Below are positions 21,271 to 21,940 of a DNA stretch of 64,000 nt, piece after piece. The stretch is taken from assembly GCA_046723645.1 (NCBI GenBank), contig JBKOUY010000008.1, positions 13,264-77,263 of the forward strand. The letters run 5' to 3'. The notes beneath the pieces were generated by a model. The model searched no databases. It worked only from the letters and a program-made list of their open reading frames with translations, and was not told where the DNA came from. The position numbers were made by a program, and so were the translations under genes. This DNA comes from Actinomycetota bacterium (GTDB lineage Bacteria; Actinomycetota; Acidimicrobiia; Acidimicrobiales; VFJN01). Position 1 is the first letter of the stretch. Every line of letters begins with the position of its first letter.

Positions 21271-21801
21271 ATGCGGGTCTACGCTCCGAACGTGCCCGAG
21301 GAGACATTCATAGACAACGACGCGCTCCTCCGCCGGCACGGTCTGCAGGTCACGGCACAGCGCCTGGCCGTTCTGCGGGCGGTGTCCGACCGACCGCACG
21401 GCACTGCCGACGACATCGACAAGGTCATTCGGGCCGAGCTTGGTGCCATCTCTCGTCAGGCCGTGTACGACGCGCTCGCGGTCTTCACCGACAAGGGTCT
21501 CCTCCGGCGCATCCAGCCCGCCGGGTCGCCGGCCCGCTACGAGGATCGGGTTGGTGACAACCACCACCACCTGATCTGCCGAACATGTAGCCGGATGGTC
21601 GACGTCGACTGTGCGGTCGGCGAGACTCCGTGCCTGACGGCGGCCCACGACTGGGGCTACGAGGTGGACGAGGCCGAGGTCATCTACTGGGGCCGCTGTC
21701 CCGAGTGTGTCGCGGCGACGTCCGTCTCGTCAGACGGCCAAGGGCGAGCAACATCGAGAGCAACCAGCCAGAAGGAAACACCGACAGAGGAGCAGGACTG
21801 A
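21271..21801 (+). CDS. furA: Fur family regulator (FurA-type, upstream of katG)
   Basis: …[12 protein letters not shown]…[22 protein letters not shown]…[17 protein letters not shown]…CPEC, in the classic furA-katG arrangement. The N-terminal start (ATG 21271 or an internal start) is uncertain. Confidence 0.85.
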
Positions 21802-21940
21802 CGTGACTGACAGCGGCAGTGAAAGCGAAAACCCAGCAATCTCATCCCCCACGCCAGAGGCACCTCCGAGCGGGACTGACGTGACTGACAGCGGCAGTGA
21901 AAGCGAAAACCCAGCAATCTCGCCCCCCACGCCCAAGGCG
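21795..21940 (+). repeat. Tandem duplication, 78-bp period, spanning the furA stop and the katG start
   Basis: 21795-21843 and 21873-21921 are identical (ggactgacgtgactgacagcggcagtgaaagcgaaaacccagcaatctc, 49 nt). The next 11 nt differ at only 2 positions, and similarity fades over about 6 more. Confidence 0.9.

Follow-up and report, generated by a model that had tools for sequence, protein, structure and literature searches.

The furA-katG junction of the window (the whole 64,000-nt stretch of actinobacterial DNA analyzed here, to which all coordinates refer) carries a 78-nt head-to-tail tandem duplication. The duplication is real and is carried by every sampled member of one species-level population. 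The reading that we favor, with a probability of about 70%, is that of a 78-bp in-frame duplication in a single species-level population, in which KatG starts at position 21803 and bears a doubled N-terminal tail within an ordinary furA-katG operon. The duplicated segment begins in the final codons of furA, takes in its TGA and the katG GTG, and extends to codon 22 of katG. KatG is the main hydrogen peroxide defense in many actinomycetes and activates isoniazid in mycobacteria, where its expression depends on the furA-katG junction. As the present case shows, in-frame duplication of this junction and of the start-proximal tail can occur and be shared by all sampled members of a natural population. 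The features on which the analysis turns are as follows.

21271–21801, + strand: furA, a Fur-family regulator of 176 aa with HHHxxCxxC and CPEC metal-site motifs (Pfam PF01475, E = 3.8e-18)
21770–21792, + strand: purine-rich tracts in the furA 3' end (AGAAGGAAA at 21770–21778 and AGAGGAG at 21786–21792), the presumed Shine-Dalgarno/polypurine element of the first katG start
21790–21867, + strand: duplication copy 1, holding the last three furA sense codons, the TGA at 21799–21801, one spacer nucleotide, the katG GTG at 21803 and complete katG codons 2–21 (delimited by Tandem Repeats Finder and a repeat search)
21795–21843, + strand: first 49-nt core, with no mismatch to the second
21803–24079, + strand: katG in its long form, 758 aa from the first GTG, a two-domain catalase-peroxidase
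21868–21945, + strand: duplication copy 2, holding a copy of the furA tail, a TGA at 21877–21879 and a second in-frame GTG at 21881, and running into the conserved start of the KatG body
21873–21921, + strand: second 49-nt core, with no mismatch to the first

The furA-katG locus and its duplicated junction

The window comes from an uncultured soil actinomycete with a G+C content of 71%. Directly upstream of katG and on the same strand lies furA, whose stop falls one nucleotide before the katG GTG, and a Fur-family gene adjoins katG likewise in most of about 80 related metagenome loci. The KatG open reading frame matches PF00141 in two stretches (E = 4.2e-70), giving two tandem peroxidase-fold domains. 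Matches to solved KatG structures run end to end with E = 0, and the enzymes of Burkholderia pseudomallei (5l05) and M. tuberculosis (1sj2/2cca) have the catalytic Arg, Trp and His, the adduct residues and the proximal His in common with it. Residues R122, W125, H126, Y247 (in LIYVNPEG), M273 and H288 (in GGHTVGK) occupy invariant columns in an alignment of 46 homologues. We take these to be the distal Arg-Trp-His triad, members of the Met-Tyr-Trp adduct and the proximal His by correspondence with W107, Y229, M255 and H270 of the M. tuberculosis enzyme, at an offset of +18. The nearest named matches are from Pseudonocardiaceae (84–85% identity), and the best match to a GTDB species representative, among the matches listed, is 83% identical.

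The arrangement resembles furA-katG of M. tuberculosis and M. smegmatis, where a Fur-family gene likewise lies directly upstream on the same strand and a purine-rich tract precedes the katG start by a few nucleotides. The furS-cpeB genes of Streptomyces reticuli form a comparable pair of Fur-type regulator and catalase-peroxidase. Unlike the mycobacterial locus, the one described here has its furA stop one nucleotide before the katG GTG and carries the junction with 21 complete katG codons twice. For this soil actinomycete, the mycobacterial literature serves only as an analogy.

Tandem Repeats Finder reports a single array at 21790–21933 with a period of 78, 1.8 copies, 95% matches, no indels and a score of 267. 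This is the strongest tandem repeat within the 64-kb window, the runner-up scoring 89. A separate repeat search returned 21790–21861 and 21868–21939 at 93% identity. The full copies abut without a spacer and differ at 10 of their 78 positions. Copy 1 ends two nucleotides into katG codon 22 and is translated up to ...SSPTPEAP, and the copied TGA at 21877–21879 lies out of the katG frame and hence is no stop there.

An earlier note on this DNA had described a tandemly duplicated furA-stop/katG-start junction with two GTG codons in frame, and the alignment and coordinates of the copies bear it out. The 49-nt cores are identical, where 100 shuffles gave an expectation of no match by chance. The 11 nt that follow differ at two positions, the GTGs at 21803 and 21881 stand 78 nt (26 codons) apart in one frame with the furA TGA at 21799–21801, and both 26-residue peptides are as the note quoted them. 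The internal GACTGAC-GT-GACTGAC repeat is also present, at 21796–21811 and again at 21874–21889. The repeat unit itself stands, with its start moved to 21790, 5 nt further 5' than the note had placed it and at the cost of one A/G mismatch.

The note's proposal that the GACTGAC direct repeat acted as a slippage substrate does not fit, since this repeat sits inside the unit and not at the 78-nt breakpoints. The 7-nt repeats were accordingly dropped as the cause of the 78-nt event, being internal to the unit and away from its ends. Comparison of the window with the related loci L091 and L172 revealed no microhomology at the inferred breakpoints.

Upstream of furA, a TTGACT at 21218–21223 lies within CTCTTGACTAGCGGGTCAGG, and a TAGACT at 21256–21261 ends 9 nt before the furA ATG. 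The stretch presumably resembles the furA promoter/FurA-box region and near-leaderless furA transcript of mycobacteria; a consensus promoter scan did not call it. Further upstream, a DUF222-HNH endonuclease-like gene (19954–21190) is polymorphic among assemblies for a 1-nt indel at 20840. The extra C, present in the window, L083 and L089 and absent from the other eight, splits the gene into two overlapping open reading frames; in most other assemblies it is intact at 393–398 aa. Either the gene is segregating as a pseudogene or the indel arose in assembly.

The wider window holds three large regulators of about 940–1100 aa, at 10824–14123, 32156–35425 (- strand) and 46913–49738, with NB-ARC-TPR-LuxR, SARP/BTAD-AAA and AAA-LuxR architectures. 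Regulators of this kind are typically met in the accessory regions of actinomycete chromosomes. No rRNA or tRNA gene and no housekeeping marker was found in the 64 kb, and its ten large open reading frames encode regulators, transporters and oxidoreductases.

Distribution in the population and in close relatives

A look-up of the exact FurA protein retrieved ten further contigs, five from NCBI metagenome-assembled genomes and five from JGI metagenome assemblies. These are 99.7–99.93% identical to the window over 1.6–12.5 kb. The two-copy junction is identical base for base in all eleven sequences, and none of the 38 sites that vary among them in 12.5 kb falls inside 21790–21945.

The earlier note had allowed for an assembly artefact, and the presence of both copies in ten independent assemblies argues that there is none. 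We treat the duplication as real because these assemblies agree and because the copies differ at 10 positions, where a spurious expansion of one copy would have produced an equal of its source. Such an expansion is highly improbable, even though all of the data come from short-read metagenome assemblies: eleven NCBI and JGI sequences, each assembled independently, match base for base, and single reads or read pairs could span a 156-nt array whose identical core is 49 nt long.

One JGI contig, L087, has seven SNPs clustered within 31 nt inside katG (window 22135–22165). The cluster overlaps a 10-nt repeat, CGGCCACTA, that Tandem Repeats Finder places at 22131–22158, and katG of this contig is called from much further downstream. 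A patch of recombination or a local misassembly may account for it.

The four closest relatives outside the population, L091, L172, L175 and L176, all have a single copy. Their nucleotide identity to the window is 84–95%, and their KatG proteins are 91–92% identical where full length. By locus, L091 is 92–95% identical in nucleotides; L172 is 91–93% identical in nucleotides and 92% in KatG protein; L175 encodes a FurA in the same 90% cluster as that of the window; and L176 has a katG that is 91.6% identical in nucleotides with no furA upstream. In its context, copy 1 is orthologous to the lone unit found in L091, L172 and L175. The two units are thus no old feature common to all relatives. Of the note's description of a recent duplication, the lineage-specific part stands and the very recent part does not, the copies having come to differ at 10 of 78 positions.

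L176 retains GAGAGGAGGCCCGACGTGTCTGAC before its katG start although it has no upstream furA. There (Ga0672946_0014998, 1897–2138), a 240-nt intergenic region separates katG from a divergently oriented gene for an FAD-binding oxidoreductase.

Choice of the katG start codon

Copy 1 keeps the whole ancestral initiation context, with the purine-rich tract in the 3' end of furA and the furA stop one nucleotide before the GTG, and for this reason a start at GTG 21803 is most likely. Ribosomes would begin there as in the relatives and would read copy 2 as internal KatG, passing the copied TGA out of frame and decoding GTG 21881 as valine. The flanking sequence fits such a division of roles. Only the last 3 nt of the purine-rich element lie inside the duplicated unit. 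Its AGAGGAG at 21786–21792 continues as CAGGA to 21797 and ends 5 nt before GTG 21803. Copy 1 is preceded by AGAGGAGCAGGA, and copy 2 is preceded by CTCCGAGCGGGA because the unit begins only at 21790.

Duplex energies with the anti-Shine-Dalgarno sequence are -8.5 kcal/mol (22 nt before GTG 21803) and -5.8 kcal/mol before GTG 21881, against a background median of -5.3 kcal/mol within katG. The first Shine-Dalgarno is itself moderate, its energy standing at about the 20th percentile of background. The second GTG, which has no GAGGAG, shows no Shine-Dalgarno above background by this measure. A strong Shine-Dalgarno sequence is not required at the starts of many actinobacterial genes, so the second GTG could still see some use.

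Many furA-katG loci conserve the sequence ACTGACGTG (as ..RRTDV.., from ACT-GAC-GTG), which reads TDV in the katG frame and consists of the furA stop and, directly after it, the GTG. This conserved context points to GTG 21803 as the canonical katG start. Gene callers gave the 758-aa form from the first GTG in nine of the ten other assemblies, and this annotation is probably right rather than over-extended. Translation most likely begins at GTG 21803, we infer, with the second GTG serving mostly as an internal valine codon.

In mycobacteria, a polypurine sequence 4 bp upstream of katG and the translation of about 20 codons stabilize the processed katG mRNA (PMC2358910). The element that copy 1 retains would, by analogy, be the relevant one. 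The earlier note had suggested that the duplication alters furA-katG coupling or the level of KatG. Nothing that we computed supports this, and copy 1 retains the ancestral coupling context whole; the extension would be tolerated and coupling changed little or not at all.

The same note had also proposed that katG starts at the second GTG, behind a 78-nt leader. Copy 1 would then serve as a leader, or survive as a short remnant that is still translated, with katG uncoupled from furA termination and KatG levels altered as a result. Copy 2 does align with the canonical 27-residue tail of the relatives, and the resulting 732-aa product would be of normal length. This start is nevertheless the less likely one, the Shine-Dalgarno having been lost there (-5.8 versus -8.5 kcal/mol), and we consider it improbable that the second GTG is the real start. 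It is copy 1 that has the ancestral Shine-Dalgarno and stop-start arrangement; being in frame and without a stop, it would lead ribosomes from 21803 on into KatG. Every duplication found here and in other lineages, moreover, has an offset that is a multiple of three, as expected only if the segment is translated through.

Somewhat less improbable, though still unlikely, is the use of both GTGs, which would yield KatG isoforms of 758 and 732 aa that are one tail module apart and would keep the 49-nt core as a working initiation region in each copy. At the second GTG, the codon and its 5' flank (GGACTGAC) are preserved without any difference from the first, no substitution has entered the core next to a tail that has diverged strongly, and the 5' coding sequence is A-rich and unstructured. 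The first ~20 codons of mycobacterial katG and their translation also stabilize the mRNA (PMC2358910). Against dual initiation, copy 2 has no GAGGAG tract and an anti-Shine-Dalgarno energy at background. No furA-type termination takes place beside GTG 21881, with no stop before it in the translated frame, and in the older duplication of locus L173 the internal start codon has been lost.

Searches for other signals around the preferred start at GTG 21803 gave little. RNA folding of 21740–21960 is no more stable than that of shuffled sequences (z = +1.23), so nothing obvious occludes the first start. On the same result, a regulatory hairpin built by the duplication was discarded. Rfam and tRNA scans of the whole window gave no matches and thus no known RNA element at the junction. 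Over 21000–24300, a sigma-70-type promoter scan found no sites, a result of little weight for an actinomycete, and a terminator scan found one terminator-like site, which is chance level.

The predicted doubled tail, its uneven divergence and its recurrence

The predicted product is a KatG of 758 aa whose N-terminal tail would have 54 residues versus 27 and would carry two S-E-S-E-N-P-x-I-x-x-P-T-P modules ahead of an unchanged enzyme body. Among about 110 related KatGs listed, the residues before the DWWP motif mostly number 27, with a range of 23–35; the window has 54. The canonical N-terminus, seen in most of these proteins, reads V/M-[ST]-D-x-G-S-E-S-E-[NS]-P-x-I-P-x-P-T-P-K-x-x-R-P-R-x-N-x-D-W-W-P. 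Residues S32, S34, E35, P37, I39 and P42 are invariant in the alignment of 46 KatGs and all lie in copy 2. On this invariance, we regard the tail module as strongly conserved; the window carries two copies of it.

Query residue 42 is the first to align with 5l05, which leaves the first copy and half of the second beyond the aligned part. For this reason the duplication, which is ordinary in kind, would appear to lie outside the folded enzyme. A predicted structure of the 758-aa protein, built from the 46-sequence alignment, has a mean pLDDT of 49, too low to judge disorder of residues 1–54.

We know of no function described for the conserved S-E-S-E-N-P-x-I motif, and to our knowledge M. tuberculosis KatG, unlike the KatG described here, has no tail of this type. 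The idea that SESENP corresponds in position to the KCP(F/V) motif found in other KatGs was dropped, because Micromonospora-like KatGs have both. In P0249, P0254, P0278, P0296, P0298 and P0308, a GGCPV(A/M)H motif stands about 14 residues upstream of SESENP. The Cys-Pro motif typical of other KatGs and SESENP thus co-occur in that actinobacterial group and are not positional equivalents.

Differences between the two copies are distributed unevenly. Nine of the ten fall in the last 24 nt and one at unit position 5, with none in the 49 nt of the core. With 10 differences in 78 sites, the probability of a mismatch-free run of at least 49 nt is about 2e-4. In the tail, 5 of 9 third codon positions differ; in the core, none of 16 does (Fisher P = 0.002). 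With L091 and L172 as outgroups to polarize the changes, six are derived in copy 1 (unit positions 55, 67, 68, 73, 76 and 77) and four in copy 2 (5, 56, 74 and 76). Synonymous divergence between the tails is about 4 of about 7 sites, a small hand count, versus an orthologous katG dS of 0.21–0.30 to the single-copy relatives.

A plain history of duplication followed by drift does not predict an identical core beside a diverged tail. The pattern could come from gene conversion that re-homogenized the core of an older duplication, or from selection that maintains the core at the nucleotide level in each junction copy; either process could have acted on the second copy of the junction. It could also reflect relaxed or positive selection on tails that are now redundant, or unequal recombination between alleles that had already diverged when the duplication arose.

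The first of these possibilities can be extended to a duplication that predates the split from L091 and L172, was lost there by recombination between the repeats and had its 49-nt core in the window re-homogenized by recent gene conversion. Tail synonymous divergence above the orthologous dS of 0.21–0.30 and the sharp boundary between core and tail speak for such an age, on counts that are very small. Set against this, both copies share states of the window lineage that differ from both outgroups (G at unit position 64 and C at position 25). These fit a duplication after the split, though conversion could also have spread them. Four single-copy relatives would in addition call for separate losses or one shared loss. 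We consider the older origin unlikely and retain the reading of a lineage-specific duplication.

In-frame duplications of the same KatG N-terminal module occur in at least five other lineages of the SESENP-type clade. L171/P0154 has an ATG start and retains a second start 72 nt downstream. L173/P0177 has the SESENP module repeated 75 nt apart with a start-to-start offset of 63 nt; its internal junction has decayed from GACGTGTCTGAC to AACGCGTCTGGG and its GTG to GCG, and the open reading frame from the first GTG is still open. An 18-nt duplication (AGGACCGACGTG[T/A]CTGAC, twice) is found in L174/P0153 and one of 30 nt in L112, and P0243, P0244 and P0051/P0088 have two module copies each. The duplicated segment includes the start codon and junction in L171, L173, L174 and L112. 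Compared with the window, these other duplications are mostly more diverged, and none has a long identical core like its 49 nt.

On a neighbor-joining tree of the KatG core, P0154, P0177, P0153 and the window group each have single-copy nearest neighbors, and the duplication-bearing KatGs are only 83.5–86.4% identical to each other. On both grounds the events look independent. Start-to-start offsets of 78, 72, 63, 30 and 18 nt are all multiples of three, with some ascertainment bias in that most cases were found through in-frame peptides. When 104 junctions were scanned with Tandem Repeats Finder regardless of frame, none showed an out-of-frame duplication at the start. Offsets in multiples of three fit translation passing through the duplicated segment.

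The duplication in the window belongs to a recurrent pattern of in-frame tail duplications in this KatG clade, which marks the N-terminal tail as tolerant of, and prone to, such events. Points of modest interest are this recurrence, the conserved tail motif and the abrupt change from identical core to diverged tail; otherwise, as judged from sequence, the finding appears to be an ordinary structural polymorphism.

A more speculative reading, to which we give little credence, is that the SESENPxIPxPTP tail and its A-rich coding sequence form a functional module, that doubling it is adaptive and that the second junction is a working initiation site, giving two isoforms or a higher KatG dose. The module could act as a short linear motif of the protein, as a 5' coding element for katG mRNA stability or initiation, or as both. 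If true, this would explain the recurrence in at least six KatG lineages, and selection or gene conversion would explain an identical 49-nt core beside 24 fast-diverging nucleotides.

A repeat of another kind is seen at L135 (Ga0075363_100008027), where 4.5 perfect tandem copies of a 13-nt unit lie about 95–150 nt upstream of the DWWP codon, just before the katG start. We note it as a further sign of a repeat-prone junction region.
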